Source of the DNA: Alkalisalibacterium limincola
GTDB taxonomy: Bacteria > Pseudomonadota > Gammaproteobacteria > Xanthomonadales > Xanthomonadaceae
Assembly: GCF_008017755.1 (NCBI RefSeq)
Contig: NZ_VRTS01000007.1
Coordinates: 140,501 to 204,500, forward strand
Direction of reading: 5' to 3'
Length of the DNA: 64,000 bases
Shown here: piece by piece, positions 24,372 to 50,171 of the stretch
Layout of the letters: each line of letters opens with the position of its first letter
Numbering within the stretch: position 1 is the first letter of the stretch
Notes under the pieces: generated by a model
The model's input: the letters and a program-made list of their open reading frames with translations, nothing else
Databases searched by the model: none
What the model was told of the DNA's origin: nothing
Translations under genes and position numbers: made by a program

Positions 24372-26017
<1,646 letters not shown>

Positions 26018-27423: not shown

Positions 27424-28428
27424 ATGGGAAGGAACCTCATCGAGCTGCGCCCGGAAGGCATGTACTGCCCGGCAGGCGATTTCCACATCGATCCGTGGAA
27501 GCCGGTGGCCCGTGCGGTGATCACCCACGGCCATGCCGACCATGCACGCGCGGGCAGCGGCCGCTACCACGTCACCCGCAGTGGCCTGCCGATCCTGCAG
27601 TGGCGGCTGGGCGAGAGCGACTTCCACGCCCACGGGTATGGCGAGCGCTTCGAGCTGGGCGGGGCGACCGTGTCGCTGCACCCGGCCGGCCACGTGCTGG
27701 GCTCGGCGCAGGTGCGCGTGGAGGTGGGTGGCGAAGTCTGGGTCGCGTCGGGCGATTACAAGCGCGACGCCGACCCGAGCTGCGAGCCGTTCGAGGTGGT
27801 GCGCTGCGACACCTTCATCACCGAGGCGACGTTCGGGCTGCCGGTGTACCGCTGGCAGCCGGCCGCGCAGGTGGCCGCCGAGATCGTGGCGTGGTGGGAC
27901 GAGTGCCGCGAGCTGGAGCGCACCGCCTTGCTGCTGTGCTACGCGCTGGGCAAGGCGCAGCGCCTGCTGGCGGAGTTGCACGCGCTGGTCGGTCACGACC
28001 CGTCGCGCCGCGCGCTGTTGCACGGCGCGATGCTGCAGGGCGTGGAGATCTACCGGCAGGCCGGCGTGGCGATGTTGCCGACGCAGGCGGTGGCGGAGCG
28101 CCAGCGCGGCGAGCGGTTCGCCGGCGAGCTGGTGCTGGCGCCACCCTCGGCGGTCGGTAGTCCGTGGGCAAAGCGCTTCCGCAACGCGTCCACGGGCTTC
28201 GCTTCGGGCTGGATGCGCCTGCGCGGCAACCGCCGTCGGCGTGGGCACGACCGTGGCTTCGTCGTCTCCGACCATGCCGACTGGCCCTCGCTGTTGCGCA
28301 CGATCCGGGAGACCGGGGCCTCGCGCGTGCTGGCCACGCACGGCAACACCGACGCGCTGGTCGCGCTCCTGCGCGAGCGCGGGGTCGACGCGGCGCCACT
28401 CAAGACCCCCTACGGAGACGAGTCGTGA
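27424..28428 (+). CDS. ligase-associated DNA damage response exonuclease (metallo-beta-lactamase fold)
   Basis: HGHADH motif (VITHGHADHARAG), beta-CASP-like remainder; first gene of the conserved exonuclease-ligase-helicase-PdeM cluster. Confidence 0.8.
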   Translation: MGRNLIELRPEGMYCPAGDFHIDPWKPVARAVITHGHADHARAGSGRYHVTRSGLPILQWRLGESDFHAHGYGERFELGGATVSLHPAGHVLGSAQVRVEVGGEVWVASGDYKRDADPSCEPFEVVRCDTFITEATFGLPVYRWQPAAQVAAEIVAWWDECRELERTALLLCYALGKAQRLLAELHALVGHDPSRRALLHGAMLQGVEIYRQAGVAMLPTQAVAERQRGERFAGELVLAPPSAVGSPWAKRFRNASTGFASGWMRLRGNRRRRGHDRGFVVSDHADWPSLLRTIRETGASRVLATHGNTDALVALLRERGVDAAPLKTPYGDES

Positions 28429-32439: not shown

Positions 32440-33104
32440 GCCAGCCGCTGTCCATTGTCGTGGCGGGCTGGCCGATGCAGGCCTGGGGACAGCGGGCGCT
32501 GTTCTGGCCCGAGGTGGGGATGCTGGTGATCGCCGACCTTCACCTGGGCAAGGGGGACGTGTTCCGGCGTGGCGGCATCCCGCTGCCCGGCGGTGGCACC
32601 GCCGGCGACCTGCAGCGGCTCGGCCAGCTGGTGGAGGCGACCGCTGCCCGGCGGCTGATGATCCTGGGTGACGTGCTGCACGGTGCCCTGAACCGGGAGG
32701 CGCCCTGGTTGTCCACGTGGGACAGCTGGCGGGCGCGGCATGCGACGCTTTCGGTGGAGGCGGTCCTGGGCAACCACGATCGTGCCCTCGACGCGGAACG
32801 CCTGGGACTGCACGTGCATGGAGAGGAGCATCGCCAGGCCGACCTGGTGTTTCGCCACGAACCCGTGGCCAGCGCCGAGGGGCATGTGCTGGCCGGTCAC
32901 GTCCATCCGGTCCGCCGCGTGCGCGCGGTGGGACTCTCCGCGCGGCTGCCCGTGTTCTGGCTGTCACCGGACTGCAGCGTGCTTCCGGCCTTCTCCGCGT
33001 TCACCGGCGGCTTCGAGGTGCGACCACGGCCGGGCGACCGCCTGCTGGCCTGCACCGGCAAGACGGTCATTGCGCTCCCGGTGGCCGGCCGGAGCAATTC
33101 CTGA
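32436..33104 (+). CDS. pdeM: ligase-associated DNA damage response metallophosphoesterase PdeM
   Basis: Calcineurin-like motifs (LVIADLHLGKG, ILGDVLHG, GNHD, GHVHP). Confidence 0.8.
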   Translation: MSQPLSIVVAGWPMQAWGQRALFWPEVGMLVIADLHLGKGDVFRRGGIPLPGGGTAGDLQRLGQLVEATAARRLMILGDVLHGALNREAPWLSTWDSWRARHATLSVEAVLGNHDRALDAERLGLHVHGEEHRQADLVFRHEPVASAEGHVLAGHVHPVRRVRAVGLSARLPVFWLSPDCSVLPAFSAFTGGFEVRPRPGDRLLACTGKTVIALPVAGRSNS

Positions 33105-33249: not shown

Positions 33250-36078
33250 ATGGAGCCCGACACCGACGCAGCCCTCACCCGTTTGCTGGCCGAGCGCCGG
33301 GAGCGCCTGCTGCGCGAAGTGCCTTCCGCGGTGGACTCACCCGCGCTGGACCGCCTCGTGCTGGCCAGCGACTTCGCCTACGAAGCCCTCCTCGCCGACC
33401 CTGCGGCCTGGGATGCGATGCAGGGCGGAGCCATCTCCGTGCCGGAGTTGGCCCCTGGCGACGAGGCGGGGTGGCCGGGACAACTGCGACGGTTCCGTCG
33501 CCTGACGTCGTTGCGGCTGCTGTGGCGCGACCTGTCCGGCGAGGACACGATCGAGCAGACCCTGGCGGGCGCGTCGCTGCTGGCCGAGCAGTGCCTGCAG
33601 GCGGGCCTGGCCGCCTGCGAGGGTGCGATGGCGGAGAGCCACGGATGCATCCATGCCGAGGACGGCACGCCGCAGCGCATGGTGGTCTTCGCGCTGGGCA
33701 AGCTGGGCGGCGGTGAGCTGAATTTCTCCTCCGACGTCGACCTGGTGTTCGCCTATCCACGTCGCGGCACCAGTGACGGGGCTCGCCCGCTGGATGCGGA
33801 CGGCTGGTTCACCCGGCTTGGACAGCGCCTGATCCGGCTGCTCGATGACGTGACACCCGACGGTTTCTGTCACCGCGTGGACATGCGGTTGCGACCGTTT
33901 GGCGCCAGCGGCCGCCTGGCACTGCCGTTCGCGGCGATGGAGCAGTACTTCCAGCGCGAGGGCCGCGACTGGGAACGCTACGCCTGGATCAAGGCGCGGC
34001 CGGTGGCCGGGGATATCGCAGCGGGCGAGGAATTCCTCGACTCCTTGCGGCCCTTCATCTATCGCCGCTACCTGGACTACAACGCGCTCGACAGCCTGCG
34101 CGAGATGAAGGCGATGATCGCCGCGGAGGTCGCGCGCCGTGACCTGGCCGAGCACATCAAGCTGGGTCCCGGGGGCATCCGCGAGATCGAGTTCCTGGCC
34201 CAGGCCCTGCAGCTGATCCGGGGCGGTCGCGAAGCGCCGCTGCGGACCCGCGGATTGCTCTCGGCCCTGGCGGCGCTGGCCGCCGCCGGCCACCTGGAGG
34301 CCGATGTCGCCGAAGCGCTGGCGCAGGCCTACCGCTTCCTGCGGCGGCTCGAGAACCGCCTGCAGATGATGGGCGACCGCCAGGAGCATGCGTTGCCGGA
34401 CGACGCGCTGATGCGTGCGCGCATCGCCCGCGGCCTGGGGTTCGCGGACTTCGCGGCGATGCATGGGGAGCTCGCGCGCCACCGCGAAACGGTGTCGGGC
34501 GAGTTCGAGCGTTTGCTGGCGCCGCGTCGCCGCAGCGCGCAGGTGTCCGACCTGGCCTTGTACTGGCGGCATACGATCGAGGCCGATCCGGCCACGCGCT
34601 CGGACCCCTCGGCGCTGGCCGACGCCGGTTTCGAGGCGTTCGAGGAGGCCGACCAGGCGCTGCGTGAGTTCGCCGCCAGCCCGGCGCTGCGTGCGCTGTC
34701 GGCACGTGGCCGGCAGCGCCTGGACAACGTGCTGCCGGCATTGCTGCACGCCGCCGGCAGCAGCCGCCAGCCGGACGTGGCCCTGCCGCGGCTGTTGGCG
34801 ATGCTGCAGGCGATCGTGCGCCGCACCAGCTACCTGGCCCTGCTCGACGAACAGCCGGGTGCCCGCCAGCGGCTGGTCGATGTCACCGCGCGAAGCGCAT
34901 TGCTGGCCGAGCGCCTGGCCGAGCACCCGCTGTTGCTCGACGAGTTGCTCGACACCCGCGCTTCCGGTGCGGTGCCCACGCGCGAGGGGCTGGAGGAGGA
35001 GCTCGGCCAGCTGTTGGTGCCGGTGGACGTCGACGACACCGAGGAGGCGCTGCGCATCCTCAACGAGTTCCGGCAGAGCGTGGCATTCAGGATCGGGTTC
35101 GCCACTTTGGCGGGTCGCCAGCCGGCCGGCCTGGCCGCCCGTCAGCTGGCCTGGCTGGCCGAGGTGGTGGTGCTGGCCGCGCTGCCGCTGGCCGAGGCGG
35201 CCCTGGTCAAGCAGCACGGGCGGATCCCGGCAGCGGGTATCGCGATCGTGGGCTATGGCAGTTTCGGCGGCGAAGAGCTGGGCTTCTCCTCCGACCTGGA
35301 CCTGGTCTTCCTCTACTCGTGTGCACCCGACGCGCTTTCCGACGGGCAGCGGCCGATCGAGGCGGCGCGCTGGTATGGCCGCCTCGTGCAGAAGCTGCTG
35401 GGTTTGCTCGACACGATCACGCCGGCAGGTCGGCTGTACGAGGTGGACCTGCGCCTTCGACCCGATGGGGCCGGCGGGCTGCTGGTGACCAGTCTGGAAA
35501 GCTTCGCGGGCTACCAGCGCCAGCGCGCCTGGACCTGGGAGCAGCAGGCCCTGGTGCGGGCGCGGGCAATCGGCGGCCGGGGGCCGGTGGAGGAGATCTT
35601 CGAAGCCGTGCGCGCCGAGACGCTGCAGATGCCGCGCGAGAGCGAACGCCTGCGCGAGGACGTCGTGCGCATGCGCCGGCGGATGCGCGGCGAGCTCGAC
35701 CGCAGTCGACCCGGCAGCTTCGACCTCAAGCAGGGATCCGGCGGCCTGGTCGACCTGGAATTCCTGCTGCAGTACCTCGTGCTGGCCCATGCCAATGCGC
35801 ATCCCGAGCTGGCGGGCCCGCGGCGAAGCGACGACCTGGTCGAGGCGCTGGTGTCGGCCGGCGTGTTGTCGAAGAAGGAGGGCGACGCGCTGGTGGAAGC
35901 CCATTCGCTGCTGCTGTCGAAAGGGTTGGAGTGCACGCTGGACCACCGGCCACGGCTGGTGCCGGCCGAGCCGGAGATGGAATCCGCCTGTGGCGTGGTC
36001 GCCGGTGTCTGCCGGGCCCATGGCCTGGATTTCGAGGCCGCCGACGCATCCAACGCGGTGGCCGAGTCGCCGCGCTGA
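33250..36078 (+). CDS. glnE: bifunctional glutamine synthetase adenylyltransferase/adenylyl-removing enzyme
   Basis: 942 aa; two nucleotidyltransferase domains (GKLGGGELNFSSDVDLVF and GYGSFGGEELGFSSDLDLVF). Confidence 0.95.
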   Translation: MEPDTDAALTRLLAERRERLLREVPSAVDSPALDRLVLASDFAYEALLADPAAWDAMQGGAISVPELAPGDEAGWPGQLRRFRRLTSLRLLWRDLSGEDTIEQTLAGASLLAEQCLQAGLAACEGAMAESHGCIHAEDGTPQRMVVFALGKLGGGELNFSSDVDLVFAYPRRGTSDGARPLDADGWFTRLGQRLIRLLDDVTPDGFCHRVDMRLRPFGASGRLALPFAAMEQYFQREGRDWERYAWIKARPVAGDIAAGEEFLDSLRPFIYRRYLDYNALDSLREMKAMIAAEVARRDLAEHIKLGPGGIREIEFLAQALQLIRGGREAPLRTRGLLSALAALAAAGHLEADVAEALAQAYRFLRRLENRLQMMGDRQEHALPDDALMRARIARGLGFADFAAMHGELARHRETVSGEFERLLAPRRRSAQVSDLALYWRHTIEADPATRSDPSALADAGFEAFEEADQALREFAASPALRALSARGRQRLDNVLPALLHAAGSSRQPDVALPRLLAMLQAIVRRTSYLALLDEQPGARQRLVDVTARSALLAERLAEHPLLLDELLDTRASGAVPTREGLEEELGQLLVPVDVDDTEEALRILNEFRQSVAFRIGFATLAGRQPAGLAARQLAWLAEVVVLAALPLAEAALVKQHGRIPAAGIAIVGYGSFGGEELGFSSDLDLVFLYSCAPDALSDGQRPIEAARWYGRLVQKLLGLLDTITPAGRLYEVDLRLRPDGAGGLLVTSLESFAGYQRQRAWTWEQQALVRARAIGGRGPVEEIFEAVRAETLQMPRESERLREDVVRMRRRMRGELDRSRPGSFDLKQGSGGLVDLEFLLQYLVLAHANAHPELAGPRRSDDLVEALVSAGVLSKKEGDALVEAHSLLLSKGLECTLDHRPRLVPAEPEMESACGVVAGVCRAHGLDFEAADASNAVAESPR

Positions 36079-38878: not shown

Positions 38879-39850
38879 TCAGTCCCCAAGGGGACCCAGT
38901 TGCAGGTCTAGCCGCAGGCGGGTGGAGACGCGTTCAAGCTCGCGCAGCGGCTTGGTCTGGCCGGAGGGCGCCTGGTCCGACAAGGGTCGGACGCGCCCCA
39001 GCTCCAGCAAGTTGTCGAGGAAGACCCGCTGGCGGCCGGTGCAGCGGTCGATACCGGGCACGCAGACCGGTGCCGGGGTGGCGCAAGCCTCGGAGATCAT
39101 GTTCACGGAGTCCGGCGAGGCGACGATGACGTCGGCCCAGGCCAGCATGCCGGGGAAGGGGTTGTCGCCGTCGGCCGGTCCGCACCACCGTGCGCCCTGC
39201 CAATCGGGCCAGGCGGCACGCGCCGACTCGACCAGCCATTGCGGGGTGCGTGGCGAGCAGGCCAGCATCAGGCTGCCGCCAGCCTGTGCCCGCCAGGACT
39301 GCAGATTGTCGCGGACGATCTGCCACCAGGCCGCGTCGATCGGTGCCGCGCGCACCGGGCCACCCAGCAACACCAGCACCCTCGGACCCGGCAGCCGGCC
39401 GAGTTCGGGCCATTGCATGCGTGCATCGGCCAGCCAGGCGTCGTCGACCGGGTTCAGGCTGCCCGACAAGGTGTACACATTGGCCCCGCGCAGACGGTCG
39501 TGCGCCGGCACCACCACCGCGTCCCAGTGGCGGCTGTCGATGCGCGGGTCGAGGATCTGCACGGCGCGACTGCCGCGCTCGCGCAGCAGTCGAGTGGCCA
39601 GCGCGGCCTGGCGGCCGCAACCGATGACCAGTCGCGGTGGGCTGCGCAGCGCCTGGGTGAACTCCGTGCCCCAGGCACCATCGCTCCCGGGCAGGTGGTG
39701 CGGCGCCAGCCAGCGCCACGGGGCCCGCGTGGCCAGCGTGAACTCGCGCGCCGGGGCGTCGACCAGGGCACCGGCCAGCGCCCGCGCCTGGCGCAGGTTG
39801 CCGGCGCGACCGTCGGTGAGGATCCAGCAGTTGTCCTGGGTGGCGCTCAT
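38879..39850 (-). CDS. ELM1 / DUF1022 family protein (predicted nucleotide-sugar-dependent enzyme)
   Basis: Family-like motifs PRLVIGCGRQAA and VIVASPDSVNMISEACAT; start taken at MSATQDN (39850), upstream ATG at 39892 possible. Confidence 0.6.
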   Translation of the reverse strand: MSATQDNCWILTDGRAGNLRQARALAGALVDAPAREFTLATRAPWRWLAPHHLPGSDGAWGTEFTQALRSPPRLVIGCGRQAALATRLLRERGSRAVQILDPRIDSRHWDAVVVPAHDRLRGANVYTLSGSLNPVDDAWLADARMQWPELGRLPGPRVLVLLGGPVRAAPIDAAWWQIVRDNLQSWRAQAGGSLMLACSPRTPQWLVESARAAWPDWQGARWCGPADGDNPFPGMLAWADVIVASPDSVNMISEACATPAPVCVPGIDRCTGRQRVFLDNLLELGRVRPLSDQAPSGQTKPLRELERVSTRLRLDLQLGPLGD

Positions 39851-39894
39851 CGCGCGAGTATAGGCTTCGAGCCCTCTGCGACCACTCGTCATGC

Positions 39895-39961
39895 ATCACA
39901 TGTAATTAGTCCAAGAAGTCACATGTGATGTATTGACGCTGTCACATGTGATGTGTATCTT
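39895..39961 (+). promoter_or_regulatory. operator/promoter array: three CACATGTG-type palindromes phased 23 bp apart, overlapping TTGACG-N17-TATCTT
   Basis: CACATGTa at 39897, CACATGTG at 39920 and 39943 (latter two as TCACATGTGATGT); -35 TTGACG 39933-39938, -10 TATCTT 39956-39961, ATG at 39969 (near-leaderless). Confidence 0.4.
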
Positions 39962-39968
39962 GTGTTCC

Positions 39969-41300
39969 ATGGAACGAAAGACCTCCGCCTATTACCAGCG
40001 CCGGCATCGCGAGCGCCTTCGCGAGCAGGGGCTGGTGAAGAAGGAGTTGTGGATCCTGCCGGAGTTCGGGGATGAACTCGCGGCTGTGGAGCGACGGATG
40101 CGCCAGCCGCGAGGCACGGTGCCCATTCAACAGGAGAGTGAGATGAGCGAGCCGAAGGTCTGGACCGCCAAGGCGCTTTACGAAGCGTTGAAGGCGACCG
40201 AACAGTTCCAGGGGGGCACGGCCACGGCCGAGCTGCTGGAGGGCGCCGAGCCCAGCCTGCACCTGGTGATGCACGAGTACGGCGACCTGCCGCTGTTCCT
40301 GGCGGTGGTCGGTGAGCAGATCGTGGTCGAGTCGCTGCTGTGGCCACAGTCTCAGGTGCACGACATCGCCGCGTTCAACGACGAGCTGCTGCGCACCCAC
40401 AAGATGTTCCCGCTGTCGACGGTCGGCATCGAGGACCTCGATGGCGATGCGGTCTACATCATGTTCGGTGCGCTCGATGCGCGCTCGTCGCTGTCCAACG
40501 TCGTGTTCGAGATCGACACGCTGGCCGACAACGTCATCAAGGCCACCGAAGCCTACGAAGCCCACCTGAAGGCGCTGCCTGAGGCAGCCACGAGGAGACA
40601 GAGCATGAACATCTGGAGCAAGTTGATCACGGCGCTGCGCGGCGGGGCCAACGAGGTGGGCGAGGCGGTGGTCGATGGCCAGGCGCTGCGCATCCTCGAC
40701 CAGGAGATCCGCGACGCCGACGCCGAGCTGCGCCGGTCCAAGGAGGCGCTGGCCGAGATCATGGCCAAGCTGAAGCTGGCCGAGGTGCGCCTGGCCGAAT
40801 CCGAGAAGAAGGTCGGCGAGTACGAGGCCTACGCGATGAAGGCGCTGGACTCCGGTGACGAGAACCTGGCCCGCGAAGTGGCGGGCAAGATCGCCACGAT
40901 GGAGCAGTCGCGCGACGGCGAACGCCAGCAGGTCGAGGCGTTTACCGCCAGCGTGGCCGACCTGCGCCGCGCGGTCAGCCAGGCCGAGGGCAACATCCGC
41001 CGGCTCAAGCAGCAGGTGGACACGGTCAAGGCGACCGAGAGCGTGCAGCGCGCGCAGGCGACGGTGGCGCACCGCTACAGCGGTTCGCAGTCGAAGCTGA
41101 CCACGGCGCTGGACTCGCTGGAGCGGGTGAAGAAGAAGCAGGCCGAGCGCGGCGCGCGCATGGAGGCGGCGGCCGAGCTGGCGCGTGACGAGGGCACCGA
41201 CGCGGTCGACACCAAGCTGCGCGATGCCGGCATCCTGGCCGACGCGGCCAGCACCGAGTCGGTCCTGGACCGCCTCAAGAGCAAGCGCGCGACGGGCTGA
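39969..41300 (+). CDS. single stop-free ORF containing three modules: DUF3018-like RHH basic domain, YjfI-like DUF2170 domain, PspA/IM30 (YjfJ-like) coiled-coil domain
   Basis: MERKTSAYYQRRHRERLREQGLVKKELWILPEF (DUF3018-like); MSEPKVW...FLAVVGEQIVVESLLWP...MFGALDARSSL (YjfI-like); MNIWSKLITALRGG...ILDQEIRDADAELRRSKEALAEIMAKLK... (PspA-like); internal AGGAG-ATG signals before the second and third modules but no stop codons. Confidence 0.7.
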   Translation: MERKTSAYYQRRHRERLREQGLVKKELWILPEFGDELAAVERRMRQPRGTVPIQQESEMSEPKVWTAKALYEALKATEQFQGGTATAELLEGAEPSLHLVMHEYGDLPLFLAVVGEQIVVESLLWPQSQVHDIAAFNDELLRTHKMFPLSTVGIEDLDGDAVYIMFGALDARSSLSNVVFEIDTLADNVIKATEAYEAHLKALPEAATRRQSMNIWSKLITALRGGANEVGEAVVDGQALRILDQEIRDADAELRRSKEALAEIMAKLKLAEVRLAESEKKVGEYEAYAMKALDSGDENLAREVAGKIATMEQSRDGERQQVEAFTASVADLRRAVSQAEGNIRRLKQQVDTVKATESVQRAQATVAHRYSGSQSKLTTALDSLERVKKKQAERGARMEAAAELARDEGTDAVDTKLRDAGILADAASTESVLDRLKSKRATG

Positions 41301-41386
41301 GCCTGTCGCGAGGGGGGTGGTCCGGCAGGGGTGCCGGGCCGCCGGGGAGGAACGGGCGCAAGCCCGTCGGCTGAGGGGAGGTCGCC

Positions 41387-42025
41387 ATGGAAGAGTTCCT
41401 GCGCATCGCGCTGTCGTTCCCGACACTGGTGTTCAGCATCCTGCTGGCGGTGTCGGTGGCGTACTGGGCGCTTGCCGCCACTGGAATGCTGCACATCGAT
41501 GCACTGGACGGGTGGGTGGCGCCGGACATCGATGGCATCGAAGTGGACGGCCTGGCCGGCCTGCTGATGCGTTTCGGGCTCGGCGGCCTGCCGCTGATGC
41601 TGATCCTGACCGTGCTGTTCTTCGTGGCGTGGCTGCTGACCTATTTCGCCGACTACCTGCTGCTCAGGCACATGGACATCCCGGTGCTGAGCTGGCTGCT
41701 GGGCCTGGCGGTCATGCTGGGCGCGCTGGTCGCCGGCGTCGTGGTGACCAGCGTGGTGCTGCGGCCTTTGCGGGGGCTGATGGCACGGCTGGCGCCACCG
41801 GCGATGCGTTCGGTGATCGGCCAGCTGGCAGTGGTGCGCACCCCCACGGTGAGCGCAACACACGGCCAGGTCAGCGTCGAGGATGGCGGCGCCGGTCTCA
41901 TCCTGAATGTGCGTTGCGACCAGGGCCGGGACTTCCAGCGCGGCGACCGGGTCGTGTTGATCGAATACCTGGAGGCGGAAAACGCCTACCGGGTCATGGC
42001 TGAAGACGAATTCCACGGGCGTTGA
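41387..42025 (+). CDS. NfeD/YqiJ-like membrane protein with C-terminal OB/beta-barrel domain
   Basis: Several TM helices then ...TVSATHGQVSVEDGGAGLILNVRCDQGRDFQRGDRVVLIEYLEAENAYRV; positioned directly upstream of flotillin as in yqiJK/nfeD-floT pairs. Confidence 0.6.
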   Translation: MEEFLRIALSFPTLVFSILLAVSVAYWALAATGMLHIDALDGWVAPDIDGIEVDGLAGLLMRFGLGGLPLMLILTVLFFVAWLLTYFADYLLLRHMDIPVLSWLLGLAVMLGALVAGVVVTSVVLRPLRGLMARLAPPAMRSVIGQLAVVRTPTVSATHGQVSVEDGGAGLILNVRCDQGRDFQRGDRVVLIEYLEAENAYRVMAEDEFHGR

Positions 42026-42067
42026 GCGCGCGCGGACTGAACACGTGTTTCATACGGAGATGGAAAG

Positions 42068-43996
42068 ATGAATTTCGACCTCGCGCTGCTGCTGCCCTTC
42101 CTGATCGGGTTTGTCGTACTGGTCATCCTGGTCATGGGCCTGTTCGGCCTGTTCAAGGCCTTCTACATCAAGGTGCCCCAGGGCACCGCGCTGATCGTGA
42201 ACGACCTGTCGCCGCAACCCAAGGTGCACTTCACCGGTGCCCTGGTCTACCCGGTGATCTACAAGAAGGAGTTCATGAAGATCTCGCTGATCACCCTCGA
42301 GGTGGACCGGCGGGGCAAGGACGGATTGATCTGCCGCGACAACATGCGCGCCGACATCACCGTCGCCTTCTACCTGCGCGTCAATGAGACCGCGCAGGAC
42401 GTGCTGAAGGTGGCCAAGGCCATCGGCGTGGACCGGGCCTCGGAGAAGGGCGCGGTCAACGAGCTGTTCAACGCCAAGTTCTCCGAGGCGCTCAAGACCG
42501 TCGGCAAGCAGATCGACTTCGTGAAGCTGTTCGAGAACCGCCAGGAGTTCCGCGACTCGATCGTCGAGGTGATCGGCAACGACCTCAACGGCTACGTGCT
42601 CGAGGACGTCGCGATCGACTACATCGAGCAGACCCCGCGCAGCTCGCTGGATCCGTCCAACATCCTCGACGCCGAGGGCATCCGCAAGATCACCGAGCTC
42701 ACCGCGGCGCAGAACGTAATCACCAACGAGCTCGAGCGCAACGAAGAGCTGGCGATCACCAAGAAGAACGTCGAGACGCGAGAGGCGATGCTGGCGCTGG
42801 AGCGGCAGCAGGCCGATGCCGAGGCGCGGCAGAAGCGCGAGATCCAGACGATCAAGGCCCGCGAGGAGGCCGAGACGGAGAAGGTGCGCGAGGAGGAGCG
42901 CCTGAAGGCCGAGAACGCGCGCATCCAGACCCAGGAGCAGATCGACATCCGCGAGGAGAACCGCCAGCGCGAGGTCGAGGTGGCGCAGCAGAACCGCCAG
43001 CGCGCGGTGGTCATCGAGGTCGAGAAGGTGACCCGCGCCCGCGACCTGGAAGTCGTCTCGCGCGAGCGTGAGGTCGAGCTGCAGCGCATCGAGAAGGAAA
43101 AGGCGATCGAGGAGCAGCGCAAGGAGATCGCCAACGTGATCCGCGAGCGCATCGTGGTCGAGAAGTCGGTGGCGCAGGAGGAGGAGCGCATCAAGGAGGT
43201 GCGCGAGGTCTCCGAGGCCGACCGCCTCAAGCAGGTGGCGATCCTCAATGCCGAGGCCCAGGCCGAGGAGGAACTGGTGCGCCAGGTCAAGCAGGCCGAG
43301 GCCGAGGAGACCGCCTCGAAGCACAAGGCGGTCGAGATCACCACGATCGCGCAGGCCGAGCTGGAGGCCGCCGGCAAGAAGGCCGAGTCGCAGAAGAAGC
43401 TGGCCGAGGGCATCGAGGCCGAGCGCGCCGCGCCGGGCCTGGCCGACGCACGGGTGCGCGAGATCACCGCCGCGGCACTGGAGAAGGAAGGCCTGGCCGA
43501 GGCGCGCGTGATCGCCGAGAAGATGGGCGCCGAGGCCAAGGGCGAGTCCTCGCTGGCCGAGGCCCGTGCCAAGGCGACGCGCGACGTCGGCCTGGCCGAG
43601 GCCGAGGTGCTGCGCGAGCGCTTCCGCTCCGAGGCCGAGGGACTCACCGAGAAGTTCGGCGCCCTCGAGCAGCTGGGCGACAGCGCACGCAGCCACGAGG
43701 AGTTCCGCATGCAGCTGGAGAAGAACTTCGAGCAGGCCATGGCGTCGATCGAGGCCGGCAAGGACATCGCCCGCGAGCAGGCCGAGGTGCTGTCGGCGGC
43801 GCTGTCGAAGGCCAAGATCGACATCGTCGGCGGCGAGGGCGAGTTCTTCAATTCCTTCGCCAAGGCGCTGTCGGTCGGCAAGGCCATCGAAGGCGTGGCC
43901 GGCAAGAGCCCGGTCGTGCAGGACATGCTCAAGCGGCTGATGCCGCAGATGGGTTCTTCCGCCGAGGGCGAGGCCAAGCCACCGGCCGACGCCTGA
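42068..43996 (+). CDS. flotillin (SPFH/Band-7 family, YqiK-like)
   Basis: N-terminal TM anchor, SPFH domain, very long Glu/Ala/Arg/Lys-rich coiled-coil; 642 aa. Confidence 0.85.
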   Translation: MNFDLALLLPFLIGFVVLVILVMGLFGLFKAFYIKVPQGTALIVNDLSPQPKVHFTGALVYPVIYKKEFMKISLITLEVDRRGKDGLICRDNMRADITVAFYLRVNETAQDVLKVAKAIGVDRASEKGAVNELFNAKFSEALKTVGKQIDFVKLFENRQEFRDSIVEVIGNDLNGYVLEDVAIDYIEQTPRSSLDPSNILDAEGIRKITELTAAQNVITNELERNEELAITKKNVETREAMLALERQQADAEARQKREIQTIKAREEAETEKVREEERLKAENARIQTQEQIDIREENRQREVEVAQQNRQRAVVIEVEKVTRARDLEVVSREREVELQRIEKEKAIEEQRKEIANVIRERIVVEKSVAQEEERIKEVREVSEADRLKQVAILNAEAQAEEELVRQVKQAEAEETASKHKAVEITTIAQAELEAAGKKAESQKKLAEGIEAERAAPGLADARVREITAAALEKEGLAEARVIAEKMGAEAKGESSLAEARAKATRDVGLAEAEVLRERFRSEAEGLTEKFGALEQLGDSARSHEEFRMQLEKNFEQAMASIEAGKDIAREQAEVLSAALSKAKIDIVGGEGEFFNSFAKALSVGKAIEGVAGKSPVVQDMLKRLMPQMGSSAEGEAKPPADA

Positions 43997-44137
43997 GCCC
44001 GGCCACCCCCCGGCCGAGCCTGGCCGGGGGTGGGACGATACGCCGGGTGAGCCCGGCACACCATGGATGCAGGTCGCGCGGCGGAAGCTTCCGTCGCCGT
44101 GGCCGGATCGGCCCGGCACCGGGCAGGACGGAGAGGC

Positions 44138-47100
44138 ATGGCTGAGAAGACCCCCGACACCGATACCGCCGCCGAGTCCGGCGTGGTCGACCGCGCGGTC
44201 GCCGAGGGCGGCGCCTACGAGGTGCTGCAGCGGCGCTTGCTGGACCAGGGCGCGCGCCTGCGCGGGCTGGCCGAGTCGCTCAATGCCAAGCGCCTGGAGC
44301 AGTTCGGCAGCAGCCGCATGGAGGTGGCCGGCCGGGTTCGGGTGCGCACCGAGCACAACTGCGTGGCCCGCGACATCGTCCAGGTCGGCTCGATGCTGCT
44401 GTTCGGCTACAACGTCTTCATCGGTTTGAAGAAGGAAACCCGGGTCGAGGACGTCTTCTCGCTGTACCGCCTCGACGAGCGCGAGCAGGGTTACGAGGTG
44501 GTGCCGGTCGACCTGGCCGACAGCTTCCTGGCCGATCCGGGCTTCGTGCGCGACTTCAACGAGCTCTACGCCTACTACAAGAGCGCCCGCCTGCTGCAGC
44601 TCTCCAGCCGCGACGACCGGGTGTTCGCGGTGTTCCAGATCGGCGAGCGCATCAGCGACGTGCGCGTGTTCCGCTGGAACACCACGGGTGGCCAGGTGCG
44701 CTATGTCGACAACCGCGGCGAGCGCGATGTCGAACTGCCGGCCGCGTTCGACTTCGAGTGGACGCCGACCACCCGCGAGATGGTGGTCAACGGCCCGCAC
44801 CCGCACGTCAACATCCTCGACACCGTGTTCGTCGAGACGATCGGCGGGCAGCTGACGGTCAAGATCGAGAACAACACCCGCGACGGCCGCGGCATCTTCA
44901 GCGAGCCCGTCGACGACCAGACCCAGTCGCTCGACGACGCGCAGATCCAGTTCGCCCGCATCGGCGACCTGGTGCTGCTGAAGATCCGCCCCTACCGCGA
45001 GGAGCGCTGGCGCTACCTGGTCTACAACACGCTCACCCGCAGCGTGCAGCGCATCGACGCGATCGGTCAGGCCTGCATCCAGCTGCCCGAGGACCACGGC
45101 ATCATCTTCCCGGGCGGCTACTACCTGCCCAACGGCGACACCCGCGCGTTCGAGCAGTCGATGGAAGGCATGCGCTTCAAGCGCATGATCCGCTCGCCCA
45201 ACGGCGAGGACGTGCTCTACATCTTCTACGAGCCCGAGGGCGGGCGCACCGCGCTGTTCACCTACAACATGATCGAGCGCAGGCTGACCACGCCGATCTT
45301 CGGCCACGGCTGTGCGCGCCTGGACGACGGGCGCATGGTGATCTTCTCCAATGCGTCCGACGAGCCGACCCGCATCCACCCGATGCAGGTGTGGATCACG
45401 CCGTTCACCAGCGAGGAGTACGCGGCGGCGCAGCCGGCCGGCGAGGGCTTCATCGCGCGCATCGGCAACGCCGAGCTGGTGCGTGGCGTGTCCGACCTGC
45501 TCAGCCTGGCGCGCGAGATCGACGCCGAGGCGGTGTCGGTGCAGCGCTACGAGCTGCTGGTGCAGAACACGCGCCGGCTGTTCGACCTGCACCACTGGGT
45601 CGAGGACCGCGAGAGCAGCGACGTCGGCAAGCTGCTGCACGAGATCGCCGCGACCGGCGAGTCGGTGCTCGACGAGTTCGAGAAGGTCGAGGGCATTCGC
45701 GCCGAGTCGGCGCAGGCGATGGCGTCGGCCGAGGAACGGCACCGTGACCTGATGGCGCGTGCACAGCCCCGCGACTGGAAGTCGGTGGGCGAATTCGTCG
45801 CGATGCTCGATGAGCTCGCCGCACTGCGCGGCCACCTGCTGACGATCCGCGACTACCGCTATGTCGACGTCGAGCGCATCGACGCGATGGAGGCCGAGCT
45901 GCTCGAGGCGCACGAGCGCGTGGGCGTGGCCACCGGCGACTTCCTCGCCGGGCCCGACGCGCTGGCACCGTTCGGCGAGCGCCTGCAGGCACTCGACGAG
46001 GCCGCTTCCGAAGCCGACACCGCGGCACAGCTGCGCGAGCCGCTGGCCGGCATGGAGGCGATGTCGGGCGAGCTCGACACGCTGTCGGACTCATGGCCTC
46101 GCTGCGGGTGGAGGACGCGACGCAGCGCACCGCCATCGTCGAGGCGATCTCGGCGATCTACGCGCGGCTCAACCAGGCCAAGGCGCGGCTGGAGCAGCGT
46201 CGCCGCGGCATGGGCTCGGCCGAGCGCGTGGCCCAGTTCGGTGCCCAGTTCACGCTGTTCGGGCAAAGCATCACCGGGGCGCTGGCGATGGCCACCGACC
46301 CGGAGCGCTGCGACGAGCAGCTCTCGCGGTTGCTGGTGCAGCTCGAGGAGCTGGAAAGCCAGTTCGGCGAATACGAGCAGTTCCTCGGCGACATCCTGGC
46401 CAAGCGCGAGGAGCTGCTGGAGACCTTCGACGCGCACCGCCAGGCGCTGGTCGACGACCGCCAGCGCCGAGCCCACGCCGTGGGCGACGCGGCGATGCGC
46501 ATCCTGGAAGGCCTGGGCCGGCGTACCGCGCGGCTGCAGGATCCCGACGCGCTCAACGCGTTCTTTGCCGGCGACCCGCTGATCGTCAAGCTGCGCGAGC
46601 TGGCCGGCCGGCTGCGCGAGCTGCACGACAACGTGCGTGCCGACGATGTCGAGGCGCGTCTCAAGGCGGCCCGTGATTCCGCGGTGCGCGGCCAGCGCGA
46701 CCGCAGCGAGCTGTTCGAGGACGGTGGCAACATCATCCGCCTGGGTCCCCGCCACCGCTTCACGGTCAACACCCAGGAACTCGACCTGACCATCCTGCCG
46801 CGTGGCGACGGGCTGAGCGTGCACCTGACCGGCACCGACTACTTCGAACCGATCCGCGACGAGGCACTGGAGTCGCTTCGCCCCTATTGGCAGGTTTCGC
46901 TGGAGTCCGAATCACCGCAGATCTATCGCGCCGAATACCTGGCCGCGCGCATGCTGGAGGCGGCACGCGCGAATCGCGACGAGCTCGACATGGATCGCCT
47001 GCGCGAACTGGTCAAGCAGCCCGAGGCACTGGACCGGGCGATCCGCGACTTCGCCGCGCCGCGCTACCGCGAAGGCTACGAGCGCGGCATCCACGACCAC

Positions 47101-49428
47101 GACGCCGCGCGCATCCTGCAGGCGCTGGTGCCGATGCACGAGAGTGCGGGGACCCTGGCGCATGCGCCACAGGTGCGCGCACTGGCGGTGCTGTTCTGGT
47201 CGGAGCGGGCCGAGCAGGCACCGGCCGCGGGCTGGCCGGGGAGGGCGCGCACCGCCAGCGACATCCAGCGCCTGTTGGGAAGCGGAGCGGGGCTGGAATC
47301 GCTGCGCATCGAGGTGGCCGCGACCCTCGAGGACTTCATCGCGATGCACGCGCTGCCGCTGGAGCCCACGCTGGCGCCGCGGGCGGCGACCTACCTGGTG
47401 GCCGAGCTGGCCGCCGAGCACGCCCGCTTCGCATCGAGCCAGTACGCGCGACGGCTGCTCGATGGCTTGCGCGGGAAGCTGGAGGCGGCACATGCCTGGG
47501 ACGGCTTCATCGCCTCGCTCGATGCCCTTGGCGACCGACTGGCCGCGCGCTGGCAGCTCGCCCACGACTGGCTGGGCGCGCTGGTGGCCGAGCCGGATTT
47601 CCAGGCGCTGGCCGACTACGTGCCCGAAGCCGCGGCACGGCTGGTGGCCCGGGGCGACTTCCCCTGGCGCGACGAGTCCGCCGACCTGCGCGTGCAGGTC
47701 GAAGGATTGCTGGGCGACCACGCGCGCATCGCCGGGGGCGGCCTCGTCATCGGCGTGGACGAGTTCGCCGAGCGCATGGCCGCGCACGAGGTCTTCGTCG
47801 AGGGCGTGCGCGCGTTCCAGGCGCTGCGCCAGCAGGTGGTGGCGCGCGAGCGCGAGGCGATGCGGCTGGAGGAGTTCAAGCCGCGCCCGCTGACCTCGTT
47901 CGTGCGCAACAAGCTGATCAACGACGCCTACCTGCCGGTGATCGGCGACAACCTGGCCAAGCAGATGGGCGCCGCCGGCGACGACCGCCGCAGCGACCTG
48001 TCGGGCCTGCTGATGATGATCTCGCCGCCGGGCTACGGAAAGACCACGTTGATGGAGTACGTGGCGCACCGGCTCGGCCTGATCTTCATGAAGATCAACG
48101 GCCCCTCGCTGGGCCACGAGGTGCGTTCGCTCGACCCGGCCCAGGCGCCGGACGCGACCTCGCGCCAGGAACTGGAGAAGCTCAACCTGGCCCTGGAGAT
48201 GGGCAACAACGTGATGCTGTACGTGGATGACATCCAGCACACGCACCCGGAATTCCTGCAGAAGTTCATTTCCCTGTGCGACGGCACCCGCCGCATCGAG
48301 GGCGTGTGGCGCGGGCGCACCCGCACCTACGACATGCGCGGCAAGAAGTTCTGCGTGGTCATGGCCGGCAACCCGTACACCGAGTCCGGAGAGGTGTTCA
48401 AGATTCCCGACATGCTGGCCAACCGCGCCGATGTCTACAACCTCGGCGACGTGCTCGGCGGCATGGAGGAGGCGTTCACGCTGAGCTACATCGAGAACAG
48501 CCTGACCTCTAACCCGGTGCTGGCGCCGCTGGCCACGCGCGACCTGGGCGACGTCTATCGCTTCGTCGACAAGGCGCGCGGGCGCGAGGTGTCGGCCAAT
48601 GCGTTCAGCCACGCCTACAGCGCGGCGGAGACCGCCGAGATCGTCGGCACGCTCAAGCGCGTGATCCAGCTGCGCGACGTGGTCTACCGGGTCAACCAGC
48701 AGTACATCGCCAGCGCCGCCCAGGCCGAGGCCTACCGCACCGAGCCGCCGTTCCGGCTGCAGGGCAGCTACCGCAACATGAACCGCCTGGCCGAAAAGGC
48801 CTCGCCGGTGATGAACGACCAGGAGATGCAGCAGCTCCTCCACGACCACTACATCGGCGAGGCGCAGATGCTGACCGCCGGCGCCGAGGAGAACCTGTTG
48901 AAGCTGGCCGAGCTGCGCGGCGTCATGACGACCGAGCAGCAGGCTCGATGGGACTCGATCAAGCGCGACTTCATGCGCAACCGGGCCATGGGCGGCGCCG
49001 ACAGCGATGTCGGTGGGCGCGTGGTGGGCCAGTTGAGCGATCTGGTGGAAGGCGTGCGCGCGCTCAAGGAGTTGCGGGGTGGCACGGAGGCGGCCGACCC
49101 CGGGGCGACGGTGGCGCCGCTGGTGGCGGCCCTGGAGGCGATTGCCCAGCGCATGCAGCCGGCCGCGGAAGAGAGCGGGGCGGCGAAGGCGGCCTCGATC
49201 GTCGCGCGCGGCGTGCACTCCGGGATCCGTGAGGCGCTCTCGCCGCTGGCCACCTCGCTCGACGACCGCCTGGAGGTGTACGAGCTGATGACGAAGGTCG
49301 TCGCCAACCTGCGCGAAACCCCTGCGCGCGGCGGTGCCCGCCGGAGCCAGCGGGAAATCGAGCTCGACGAGGCGCTGGAGGCGTTCTCCAAGCGGCTGCG
49401 CGAGCGCTCCGGCCCCGGCGGGTCCTGA
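44138..49428 (+). CDS. very large uncharacterized protein with AAA_5/MoxR-type ATPase domain (two ORFs joined by a probable frameshift near 46085-46095; ~1,760 aa)
   Basis: Walker A (ISPPGYGKTTLMEY), Walker B (VMLYVDDIQH), sensor-1-like (VVMAGNPYT) in second ORF; first ORF (to ~46090) ends in Arg/Ser-rich nonsense while the +1 frame starts MASLRVEDATQRTAIVEAI... 2 nt later. Confidence 0.65.
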
Positions 49429-49571
49429 GGGGCGGATCCTCACGCCGCATTGTTGCGGCAGATGGGACGATCCGTTGTTGTAGGCCCGGATGAATCGAGC
49501 GGTGCAACGACGTAGACTGCCCGCCTCGATGCGCCGTCCGGGCGCCCAATGCACACGAGGGAGTTGCAACG

Positions 49572-50171
49572 ATGTCCAAGTTCGACAAGCCGCTCGATGG
49601 CGCCGCGTTCGACCAGATCTTCCGCCAGGCGCGCACGTACAACCAGTTCGCCGACCGCCCGGTCGAGGATTCCGTGCTGCGCGAGCTCTACGACCTGATG
49701 AAGTGGGGTCCGACCAGCGCCAACATGTCGCCGACACGGCTGGTGTTCGTGAAGTCGGCCGAGGCCAAGAAGAAGCTGGAGCCGGTCCTGGACGAGGGCA
49801 ATCGCGAGAAGACGATGAAGGCCCCGGTGACGGCGATCGTCGGCTACGACATGGAGTTCTACGAGAAGCTGCCGTTCCTGTTCCCGCACACCGACGCGCG
49901 CAGCTGGTTCGCCGGCAAGTCCGACGAGCAGCTCGAGCCCGCGGCGCTGCGCAACAGCTCGCTGCAGGGCGCCTACCTGATCATCGCCGCGCGCGCGCTG
50001 GGCCTGGATTGCGGCCCGATGTCGGGCTTCGACAACGCCAAGCTCGACGAAGCCTTCTTCGCCGGCACCCGCGTGCGTTCGAACTTCATCATCAACCTCG
50101 GCTACGGCCAGGAGGACCTGTTCCCGCGCAGCCCGCGGCTGGCCTTCGACGAAGCCGCCCGCATCGCCTGA
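49572..50171 (+). CDS. nitroreductase-family protein (RutE/YdjA-like putative malonic semialdehyde reductase)
   Basis: 199 aa; ...[21 protein letters not shown]... Confidence 0.75.

Follow-up and report, generated by a model that had tools for sequence, protein, structure and literature searches.

The bac Operon of Alkalisalibacterium limincola and Its Flotillin-Linked AAA+ ATPase

Identity and Layout of the Operon

We identified positions 39896–49428 of the window, the 64-kb stretch of Alkalisalibacterium limincola DNA that was analyzed, as this organism's copy of the bac operon, which combines CesT/PspA, YqiJ, flotillin and propeller-AAA+ proteins (Table 1). Profile and homologue searches showed its five genes to be orthologous to bacA–bacE of P. 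aeruginosa (PA3732–PA3728), in the order bacA (DUF2170), pspA/bacB, bacC (YqiJ-like), bacD (flotillin) and bacE ("DNA repair ATPase"). The locus adds another member to an already described type of membrane-stress operon and is no discovery. With moderate confidence, we read BacE as a motor acting on the flotillin/NfeD assembly, PspA and BacA as add-ons, and the frame breaks found in the operon copy as assembly errors. The first-pass annotation had located the genes correctly, although several of its gene models needed correction, and the window annotation should read bacA, pspA, yqiJ-like gene, flotillin gene and a single bacE.

Pfam and NCBIfam place a DUF2170 (CesT-like) gene directly upstream of the PspA_IM30 gene. 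The bacA product matched Pfam DUF2170 (E 1e-51) and the NCBIfam BacA model (343 bits, cut-off 300), and its residues 61–200 match PDB 8q8o; the pspA product matched Pfam PspA_IM30 (E 3e-51). For the 212-aa and 642-aa proteins, direct sequence searches of Pfam, NCBIfam and PDB were empty, and we therefore set their YqiJ/YqiK identity by hhalign to the E. coli proteins; their profiles also found nothing in PDB. The bacC family profile aligned with YqiJ (92.4%, E 5e-7), and Pfam YqiJ_N gave weak direct support, matching 3 of 34 family members with a best E of 0.018. The bacD family profile aligned with YqiK over 406 columns (99.9%, E 2e-33). Band_7 of Pfam matched 4 of 36 bacD orthologues, the window flotillin being too divergent for a direct match; its KD profile shows one N-terminal membrane anchor and a long charged, Ala-rich helical region. 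The alignments, together with the three hydrophobic segments of BacC, uphold the initial assignment of the two ORFs as a YqiJ/NfeD-like membrane protein and a flotillin with a charged helical region. The bacC orthologue PA14_16160 has been termed a "short NfeD" (PMC13086221).

No bacF (PLD, HKD) gene follows bacE in the window, and genes for a nitroreductase, YceI and pirin are found in its place. The flanks of the operon are housekeeping in character (glnE, LPS core genes, nitroreductase).

Table 1. Features of the bac operon copy, in window coordinates
Feature	Position	Strand	Remarks
Palindrome T[TC]ACATGT[AG]A, three copies (TCACATGTGA repeats)	39896..39951 (at 39896, 39919, 39942)	.	Candidate operator
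Sigma-70-like promoter, TTGACG-17-TATCTT	39933..39961	+	Consensus scan, pattern match only; interleaved with the palindromes
bacA	39969..40577	+	Basic conserved N-terminal motif of ~50 aa plus DUF2170/CesT-like domain
pspA/bacB (PspA_IM30)	40605..41300	+	Own AGGAG ribosome-binding site and ATG
bacC, YqiJ/YuaF-type "short NfeD"	41387..42025	+	212 aa; three hydrophobic segments (3-TM)
bacD, YqiK-type flotillin (SPFH domain)	42068..43996	+	642 aa
GC hairpin, 12 bp	44003..44033	+	Inside structured 141-nt bacD–bacE spacer
bacE, soluble AAA+ ATPase	44138..49428	+	One 1,763-aa gene, 1-nt deletion at ~46090
Beta-propeller-like domain within DUF3686	44321..45397	+	Residues 62–420; helical repeats then to residue 650
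bacE frame break	46088..46093	+	Homologues read ...LS[ES]LMA...; simplest change GAGCTC to GACTC
AAA+ core motifs	48031..48432	+	Invariant in homologue alignments
Walker A, GYGKTT	48031–48048	+	BacE AAA+ core
Walker B, VDDIQH	48223–48240	+	BacE AAA+ core
Sensor 1, GNPYT	48367–48381	+	BacE AAA+ core
ANRAD arginine	48418–48432	+	BacE AAA+ core

Linkage of the ATPase Gene to Flotillin and YqiJ-Like Genes

We compared 81 related loci from Gamma-, Beta-, Zeta- and Delta-proteobacteria/Myxococcota and one MAG labeled Clostridia, limiting the flotillin and YqiJ counts to loci with enough upstream DNA. A flotillin gene lies directly upstream of the ATPase gene in all 78 such loci and a YqiJ-like gene upstream of it in all 74, whereas the fetched flanks contain a PspA gene at 43 of 81 loci and none at 38. 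The loci missing PspA include those of Stenotrophomonas, Luteimonas and Xanthomonas chitinilytica, of the same order as the window, and 29 PspA-less loci showed no alternative conserved upstream partner. The four-gene co-occurrence suggested at first thus holds for flotillin and the YqiJ-like gene and fails for PspA in nearly half of the loci, and we conclude that the ATPase tracks the flotillin/NfeD scaffold and not PspA. A PLD gene accompanies the ATPase locus in 19 of 81 cases. In some lineages the 3' genes are translationally coupled and encode membrane enzymes, matching Rhomboid (E 1.7e-18) or PLDc_2 (E 7e-30), and a gene for a TelA-like protein is a further coupled partner. The view of the four or five genes as one functional module, put forward in the first-pass annotation, is strengthened by this linkage, by co-transcription in P. 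aeruginosa and by the membrane-enzyme partners. The family is large and counts at least 564 relatives among GTDB representative genomes and, at 50% identity, 870 clusters.

Domain Architecture of BacE

With the frames joined, a single bacE polypeptide unites PF12458, PF25472 and a P-loop AAA+ module. Its product matched Pfam DUF3686 (E 5e-205), DUF7902 and AAA_5. Members of the DUF3686 "DNA repair ATPase" family were taken to be polypeptides of about 1,600–1,900 aa; homologues of 1,750–1,800 aa bearing that name cover 99–100% of the product, which is 66% identical to P. aeruginosa PA3728 along its full length. The ATPase, once described as unannotatable, is therefore annotated by both a strong family match and named full-length homologues.

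The predicted layout comprises an N-terminal beta-propeller, a spectrin-like helical stalk, a helical middle domain and a divergent AAA+ module, with a helix preceding the propeller in the AF2 models. No TM segments were predicted in BacE; its partner proteins are membrane-anchored. The motifs GYGKTT, VDDIQH and GNPYT, rightly noticed at the outset in the second ORF, are invariant in two alignments of 32 and 67 homologues. As Walker B reads DD and not DE, ATP hydrolysis may be slow or regulatory.

The AAA+ module scored 26.1 bits with AAA_5 (cut-off 22) and nearly the same, 25.5 bits, with AAA (PF00004), the latter match being marginal and partial (profile positions 2–69 of 131). By hhalign, the similarity to RavA reached only E 0.01 and that to FtsH was confined to the P-loop; searching PDB with the sequences of the two ATPase halves turned up P-loop matches only. 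The best Foldseek matches of the C-terminal half in PDB, all weak, were AAA+ proteins of the NorQ/RuvB/Clp/Lon type (top NorQ, E 0.044), and the AF2 model has a beta-hairpin, of low pLDDT, before sensor 1.

These features bear on the proposal that PspA is an ESCRT-III protein and the ATPase its recycler. A Vps4-like BacE dedicated to recycling ESCRT-III-superfamily PspA, with flotillin and NfeD as accessories, would suit the presence of PspA/BacB in the same operon in the window and in P. aeruginosa, and Ravi et al. (PMC11237479) draw a like analogy for PspA-linked AAA+ proteins. We nevertheless consider such a role unlikely: PspA is dispensed with near 38 of the 81 loci and flotillin and YqiJ near none, Pfam found no MIT domain and the BacE N terminus is a propeller, the PF00004 match covers part of the profile, and the hairpin before sensor 1 and the top folds, weak structural evidence throughout, may point away from the Vps4/p97 clade.

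Frame Breaks in the Window

The "giant ORF pair" reported at 44138–46090 and 46093–49428 does encode an ATPase of the claimed size of ~1,760 aa, but it is a single gene with no stop at 46090. Pfam DUF7902 is split at the break, its positions 1–45 ending the first piece and 47–84 starting the second, and homologue residues 665 and 666 meet at nucleotide 46090 in two frames. The codon at 46088–46090 is GAC, and the frame-2 ORF continues as junk to 46582. Of 82 loci, 81 have the gene in one frame, and the window has the only two-frame copy. We rejected a programmed frameshift, as there is no slippery site and the shift is absent from every other locus.

A second frame break, near 40560 and ~7 codons before the bacA stop, leads to read-through into pspA, and an ancestral bacA ending "...EGAA*" is legible in another frame. 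The upstream "PspA-domain ORF" of 39933–41300 accordingly contains PspA as claimed, but is a read-through of bacA and pspA. The two are fused in 1 of 37 loci, the window alone, and are separate genes in the other 36.

As groEL (at about 25540), purH (about 14000) and dsbD (about 20250) are likewise frame-broken in the 64-kb window, the bacE split and the bacA–pspA read-through are most likely indel errors of the assembly, which should be treated as indel-prone. Were the breaks real, bacE would be a recent pseudogene or encode two polypeptides, the second from the ATG at 46093, and BacA–PspA would be a true fusion. The location of the 46090 break outside any homopolymer, the ATG immediately after it and the strong codon bias kept in both bacE halves speak for this. 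On the other hand, breaks of the same type within 64 kb affect essential or near-essential genes (groEL, purH, dsbD), and neither a split ATPase (0/81 other loci) nor a fused bacA–pspA (0/36 other loci) recurs, which makes real breaks rather improbable.

Promoter Region and Spacer

The three T[TC]ACATGT[AG]A copies upstream of bacA are spaced 23 nt and are the only matches in the window. Of 41 BacA+ loci, 26 have a pair of them at about −50/−28 relative to the bacA start, and none was found near the operon in 40 BacA− loci. From sequence comparison, this conserved pair of candidate operators may be a new finding. Matches to sigma-54 −24/−12 elements were fewer in the window than expected by chance, with none 5' of bacA. 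No terminator pattern was found on the + strand across 39500–50000. The GC hairpin after the flotillin gene, noted earlier and confirmed here, lacks a downstream T-run and is not a canonical terminator; other loci, P. aeruginosa included, have bacD–bacE spacers comparable in size and stability. The bac genes of the window would form one transcription unit, read from a promoter 5' of bacA that the palindromes guard.

Defense and DNA Repair

Large ATPases are common in defense systems, and the variable enzyme-like downstream partners (PLD, rhomboid, TelA-like) recall effector swapping. The cluster could on these grounds be a membrane-associated antiphage or conflict system whose sensor or motor would be the ATPase and whose effectors would be PLD or rhomboid proteins, an alternative raised with the original module proposal. 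We regard it as very improbable: no PADLOC model matches the products of bacC, bacD or the two bacE pieces, the search of PADLOC-DB 2.0 giving coiled-coil noise only, for PspA; the flanking genes are those of housekeeping functions; no effector gene accompanies the operon in the window; and at ≥90% identity 3,222 sequences cluster with the P. aeruginosa orthologue, a core-gene pattern. That BacE is a real DNA repair ATPase with incidental flotillin adjacency, as the Pfam DUF3686 description, the NCBI names and recJ three genes downstream in P. aeruginosa would have it, is scarcely credible, since Pfam and NCBIfam found no DNA-binding or nuclease domain in BacE, the only RuvB or Rad50 matches stay below cut-off as P-loop or coiled-coil noise, flotillin/NfeD linkage occurs in every sampled locus of diverse phyla, and the literature searched held no DNA-repair evidence for the DUF3686 ATPase family, whose name appears historical.

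Proposed Mechanism

In the reading that we favor, the conserved functional core would be the triad of short-NfeD protein (YqiJ-like), flotillin (YqiK-like) and BacE. BacE would oligomerize via its AAA+ domain, dock with its propeller or stalk on the flotillin/NfeD assembly from the cytoplasmic side, and spend ATP to assemble, remodel or dismantle the scaffold or its clients. PspA and BacA would be an add-on dyad for stress sensing and regulation, present in about half of the lineages. Gene linkage and the analogy of HflK/C with FtsH make this the most likely mechanism for BacE.

Flotillins and PspA are central to bacterial membrane organization and repair. For PspA homologues that have no AAA ATPase, Ravi et al. 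(PMC11237479) regard the control of assembly as unknown. The ~1,750-residue ATPase beside flotillin/NfeD in every sampled locus is an obvious candidate for the energy-dependent step of assembly or recycling. A more far-reaching version, which we offer tentatively and think possible but doubtful, has BacE as the dedicated AAA+ motor of flotillin/NfeD, PspA as an optional sealing module and BacA as an operator switch. The MazE-like N terminus of BacA would bind the T[TC]ACATGT[AG]A operators, switching the whole unit, with PspA titrating the CesT-like domain of BacA. If true, this would constitute a new SPFH–AAA+ pairing beside HflKC–FtsH, and the BacA circuit would be a repressor-based counterpart of the PspA–PspF circuit.

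Comparison with Known Systems

SPFH scaffolds pair with AAA+ machines in HflK/C–FtsH, whose structure is cited in PMC13086221, and in prohibitin with the m-AAA protease. These offer an analogy of principle for BacE, an SPFH membrane scaffold coupled genetically or physically to an AAA+ protein; unlike the FtsH-type partners, BacE has neither protease domain nor TM segment and is FtsH-like at the P-loop only. Vps4/CdvC with ESCRT-III likewise sets an AAA+ gene beside an ESCRT-III-superfamily gene, as bacE stands near pspA, but BacE has no MIT domain, is probably of another AAA+ flavor and is linked to PspA facultatively. As to the MoxR family (RavA, NorQ; AAA_5), the AAA_5 profile is above cut-off in BacE, and its "GNP..E....IP....NR" stretch resembles the MoxR sensor-1-to-arginine region. 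BacE is 4 to 6 times larger than MoxR-family AAA+ proteins, and a VWA partner gene, a MoxR-type feature, was found neither in the operon nor among its neighbors in the window.

The E. coli yqiJ–yqiK and B. subtilis yuaF–floT operons encode an SPFH2 flotillin and a short NfeD (Hinderhofer 2009, PMC2636767), a pair homologous to that of the window and alike in order and membrane topology. In E. coli K-12, sib/ibs loci and no ATPase gene follow yqiK, where the window has bacE. The E. coli yqiJK pair thus functions with no ATPase of this kind, so that flotillin needs none, which counts against the proposed mechanism. The small size of the biofilm effect of flotillin deletion in P. aeruginosa (PMC13086221) counts against it as well.

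The P. aeruginosa bac operon, one of the closest known systems, has the same order and orthologues as the window, with proteins of similar length (BacC 213 vs. 212 aa in the window, BacD 688 vs. 642, BacE 1,746 vs. 1,763) and the same palindrome pair 5' of bacA. It differs in having bacF (PLD), which the window lacks, and in its intact frames, bacA–pspA and bacE being disturbed in the window. A sigma-54 site has been proposed there; the window has a sigma-70-like pattern and no good −24/−12 match near the operon. Downstream of its ATPase gene P. aeruginosa has PLD, YaeQ, RecJ and M4 peptidase genes, presumably PA3727–PA3724. The operon, bacABCDEF, corresponds to PA3732–PA3727 (Macé 2008, PMC2587700; Wallart 2024, PMC10948618), and RT-PCR showed it to be co-transcribed (Wallart 2024, PMC10948618). 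BacB–F rise together, 6–13-fold, in a bacA mutant (PMC10948618). A literature search for PA3728, PA14_16190 and bacE, its matches dominated by BACE-1, returned the Wallart paper only, with PA3728 unmentioned among the matches listed.

Ravi et al. (2024, PMC11237479) published the same operon type, with an AAA+/ESCRT-like analogy in membrane dynamics, as a neighborhood of CesT/Tir–PspA, band-7/flotillin, YqiJ/YuaF and beta-propeller AAA+ proteins. They describe PLD as optional ("some Proteobacteria") and report abbreviated operons of flotillin and YqiJ, with or without the ATPase, that lack PspA (PMC11237479). Their domain set is identical to that of the window, nothing essential differs, and our counts agree with theirs. 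To their description we add the numbers for flotillin (78/78), YqiJ-like (74/74), PspA (43/81) and PLD (19/81) genes, and the rhomboid and TelA-like partners.

A Copy of the bac Operon

The locus is very probably a copy of the bac operon, and it is a further member of the operon type published earlier by Ravi et al., who described the PLD gene as optional, reported shortened operons without PspA and offered an explicit ESCRT-like/AAA+ interpretation in terms of membrane dynamics (PMC11237479). The window has a G+C content of ~70%, and the ORFs of the locus show a strong third-position G+C bias (Table). The BacA protein scored 343 bits against the NCBIfam model "biofilm formation regulator BacA" (cut-off 300). 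The 212-aa protein (BacC) had no direct match in Pfam, NCBIfam or PDB; a profile of 34 orthologues matched E. coli YqiJ (hhalign, 92.4%, E 5e-7, 138 columns), and the protein contains three hydrophobic segments. YqiJ and YuaF are recognised as homologues of NfeD and have a beta-barrel at the C-terminus (PMC2636767), and the P. aeruginosa orthologue has been termed "short NfeD" (PMC13086221). The 642-aa protein (BacD), with a single N-terminal anchor, likewise lacked a Pfam match; its family profile matched the E. coli flotillin YqiK (hhalign, 99.9%, E 2e-33, 406 columns) and Band_7 was found in 4 of 36 orthologues (best E 5e-11). These matches support the first-pass annotation, which had called the two genes, at exactly the right coordinates, a YqiJ/NfeD-like membrane protein and a flotillin.

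In P. aeruginosa, the orthologues form a biofilm-associated cluster (PMC2587700). RT-PCR showed bacABCDEF to be one transcript, and BacB-F rose 6- to 13-fold in a bacA transposon mutant (PMC10948618), while deletion of the flotillin PaFlo3 lowered biofilm by ~20% (PMC13086221). The function of BacE is addressed in no publication that we found, and the Wallart paper makes no mention of BacE as an ATPase (PMC10948618). The role of BacE and an operator-like arrangement at bacA are the points worth pursuing.

Features of the bac locus, with examples from comparison loci
Feature	Position	Strand	Remarks
T[TC]ACATGT[AG]A palindromes	39896, 39919, 39942 (span 39896-39951)		three copies, ~23 nt apart
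ORF	39933-41300	+	strong third-position G+C bias
BacA	39969-40577	+	DUF2170, E 1e-51
PspA	40605-41300	+	PspA_IM30, E 3e-51
ORF	41387-42025	+	strong third-position G+C bias; 212 aa
ORF	42068-43996	+	strong third-position G+C bias; 642 aa
12-bp GC stem	44003-44033	+	within the bacD-bacE spacer
ORF, first bacE piece	44063/44138-46582	+	strong third-position G+C bias
ORF, second bacE piece	46093-49428	+	strong third-position G+C bias
Genes overlapping the ATPase stop, examples	L002:15217-15783, L009:15333-16091, L001:15260-15952

Frame Breaks in bacE and Other Genes

The ATPase gene lies in two frames. The first piece had been thought to end at 46090, but there is no stop at that position (codon 46088-46090 is GAC) and the frame stays open over a further 490 nt of low-complexity junk sequence. 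Pfam placed DUF3686 in the first piece (E 5e-205) and divided DUF7902 between the two, with profile positions 1-45 ending piece 1 and 47-84 beginning piece 2. In tblastn with three full-length homologues, residues 665 and 666 flanked nt 46090 in two frames and the homologues read ...LS(E/S)LMA... across the site; one missing base therefore accounts for the split, GAGCTC to GACTC being the simplest change. Over 93-100% of its own length (mostly 97-100%), the joined product of 1,763 aa is 62-75% identical to proteins of 1,733-1,859 aa. Among the window and 81 related loci, the ATPase is split in the window alone, and no slippery motif was found at the break; a conserved or programmed frameshift is therefore excluded.

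Four further genes show similar breaks. In groEL, broken near 25540, Cpn60 profile positions 1-332 of 490 fall in 24378-25544 and the tail in a different frame at 25541-26017; on the minus strand, the MGS and AICARFT domains of purH are in different frames (break near 14000), as is the thioredoxin domain of dsbD with its WCVTCK motif (near 20250). The bacA frame breaks ~7 codons ahead of the stop, near 40560, and reads through into pspA, while the ancestral ending "...EGAA*" remains readable in another frame. Taken as real, these breaks would make bacE a true pseudogene and bacA-pspA a fusion, which is unlikely. The two are separate genes in all 36 other loci carrying both, and pspA retains its own AGGAG-ATG start. 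Because five genes in 64 kb, including the essential groEL, have domains or ends split between frames, the divided ATPase and the fused bacA-pspA are most likely assembly indel artefacts. The assembly seems indel-prone, and ORF-level oddities elsewhere in the window should be distrusted.

Gene Neighborhood

At least 564 relatives are present in GTDB representative genomes. We fetched 80 loci and added that of P. aeruginosa, the 81 spanning Gamma-, Beta-, Zeta- and Delta-proteobacteria/Myxococcota and one MAG labelled Clostridia. The flotillin gene was directly upstream of the ATPase gene in 78 loci, the other three being contigs whose start falls within the ATPase gene or just ahead of it; a YqiJ-like gene was upstream in 74, and in four of the others the contig ends too early on the upstream side. 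PspA was found in 43 of the 81, BacA in 40 and PLD in 19. Within the order to which the window belongs, Lysobacter-type genomes have the full set with PLD; Pseudoxanthomonas, Thermomonas and Solilutibacter have the PspA dyad without PLD; and Stenotrophomonas, Luteimonas and Xanthomonas chitinilytica are without the dyad. No conserved substitute partner was found upstream in the PspA-less loci. The proposed joint membrane module of PspA, NfeD, flotillin and ATPase thus stands in its flotillin/NfeD-ATPase linkage across the sampled loci but not in its PspA part, which is facultative. In four loci from Cellvibrionaceae and Marinobacter (L055, L057, L066, L080), PspA is upstream of yqiJ on the opposite strand, divergently transcribed, accompanied by BacA in all except L080, where none was detected; this arrangement suggests that the PspA dyad is a separable module.

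Which gene overlaps the ATPase stop depends on the lineage: 12 loci encode a rhomboid intramembrane protease there (Pfam E 1.7e-18), 19 encode a PLDc_2 protein, and 16 Xanthomonadales loci have a gene for a weakly TelA-like protein of 250 aa. None of these follows bacE in the window, where nitroreductase, YceI and pirin come next. In E. coli K-12, no such ATPase accompanies yqiJK. There (L082, 3192208-3199641), as in the window (33250-36078), glnE is no more than a few kb away from the yqiJ/flotillin pair, perhaps a trace of ancestral synteny in the Gammaproteobacteria. Further upstream, at 28164-33104 (+), genes for an ATP-dependent DNA ligase with three ligase domains, a large helicase of the Lhr type and a metallophosphoesterase follow one another and look like a DNA-repair set unrelated to the operon. 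Transcribed divergently from the operon is a 337-aa protein gene (38879-39892, minus strand) with a full-length match to Pfam "mitochondrial fission ELM1" (E 4e-76).

Candidate Regulatory Elements

The three palindromes upstream of bacA are the only matches to their pattern in the 64 kb; they are interleaved with a -35/-10 pattern of sigma-70 type and flank a -35-like TTGAC. The same palindrome pair is found at about -50/-28 from bacA in 26 of 41 loci with bacA, with degenerate forms in some others. Across all loci, 44 of 46 occurrences sit at bacA, and none is near the operon in the 40 loci lacking it. The N-terminal ~50 residues of BacA form a conserved basic motif, K[ST]SA.YQR..R.RLREQGLVKKE.WI.PE, with a weak MazE-like Pfam match (E 0.013, under the cut-off); the motif is missing from the crystallised P. 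aeruginosa fragment 8q8o, which matches just residues 61-200. On this motif, BacA is a plausible autorepressor and candidate binder of the palindromes, a reading that fits the de-repression of BacB-F in the bacA mutant. Wallart et al. proposed a sigma-54 promoter and make no reference to palindromes (PMC10948618).

The GC hairpin noted after the flotillin gene is present as a 12-bp stem in the 141-nt bacD-bacE spacer (43997-44137; -83.5 kcal/mol, z -2.3). The stem has no T-tract after it, and no plus-strand terminator pattern was found between 39500 and 50000. Flotillin-ATPase spacers in other loci have a median of 110 nt and similar stability, often folding very stably at -0.4 to -0.6 kcal/mol per nt; they include that of P. 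aeruginosa (131 nt, -76.8 kcal/mol), which is transcribed through (PMC10948618). Judged from sequence, the spacer may serve for processing or attenuation and in this way set the ratio in which flotillin and ATPase are expressed.

BacE and Its Possible Role

The AF2 model of BacE residues 1-651 (pLDDT 86, pTM 0.73) comprises a helix (26-56), a beta-propeller-like domain (62-420) and helical repeats (426-650). That of residues 653-1763 (pLDDT 76, pTM 0.47) contains long helices over ~200 residues, a mostly helical domain predicted with confidence, a single AAA+ module of lower confidence and a helical tail. No TM segment was found (maximum KD value 1.41). The Walker A (GYGKTT), Walker B (VDDIQH) and sensor-1 (GNPYT) motifs of the first-pass annotation are invariant among homologues, as is the ANRAD arginine, whereas its description of the ATPase as unannotatable fails given the DUF3686 match and the named homologues. 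The DUF3686 half alone yields 870 cluster representatives at 50% identity, with the architecture retained down to 28% identity. A PDB sequence search found no solved structure related to BacE beyond the P-loop. The top Foldseek matches were weak and to AAA+ proteins only (NorQ, E 0.044, then RuvB, ClpC/A and Lon), and hhalign matched E. coli RavA at E 0.01 and FtsH in the P-loop alone, neither comparison placing the AAA+ module in a clade.

The analysis establishes that the genes are orthologous to bac, how the domains are arranged and that the flotillin/NfeD linkage holds in every sampled locus; BacE is soluble and its partners are membrane-anchored. We tentatively propose, as a possible mechanism, that BacE would oligomerise through its AAA+ module, dock by its propeller or stalk on the cytoplasmic face of the flotillin/NfeD assembly, and use ATP to assemble, remodel or clear this scaffold or its clients, with PspA/BacA added as a dyad for stress response and regulation. 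The dedicated ESCRT-III-type ATPase for PspA suggested earlier, with BacE as a Vps4-like partner, is unlikely, given that PspA is linked in just 43 of 81 loci, that BacE has no MIT domain and that its AAA+ module looks non-classical. That the cluster is a defence system, the other early suggestion, is very unlikely: the YqiJ-like protein, the flotillin and the ATPase gave zero PADLOC matches, the gene context is housekeeping and the P. aeruginosa cluster of 3,222 sequences shows a core-gene pattern. A role in DNA repair is highly improbable, its sole basis being the database name "DNA repair ATPase" carried by the homologues. The proposed pairing of BacE with flotillin can be likened to SPFH-AAA+ pairs, of which HflK/C-FtsH is an example.
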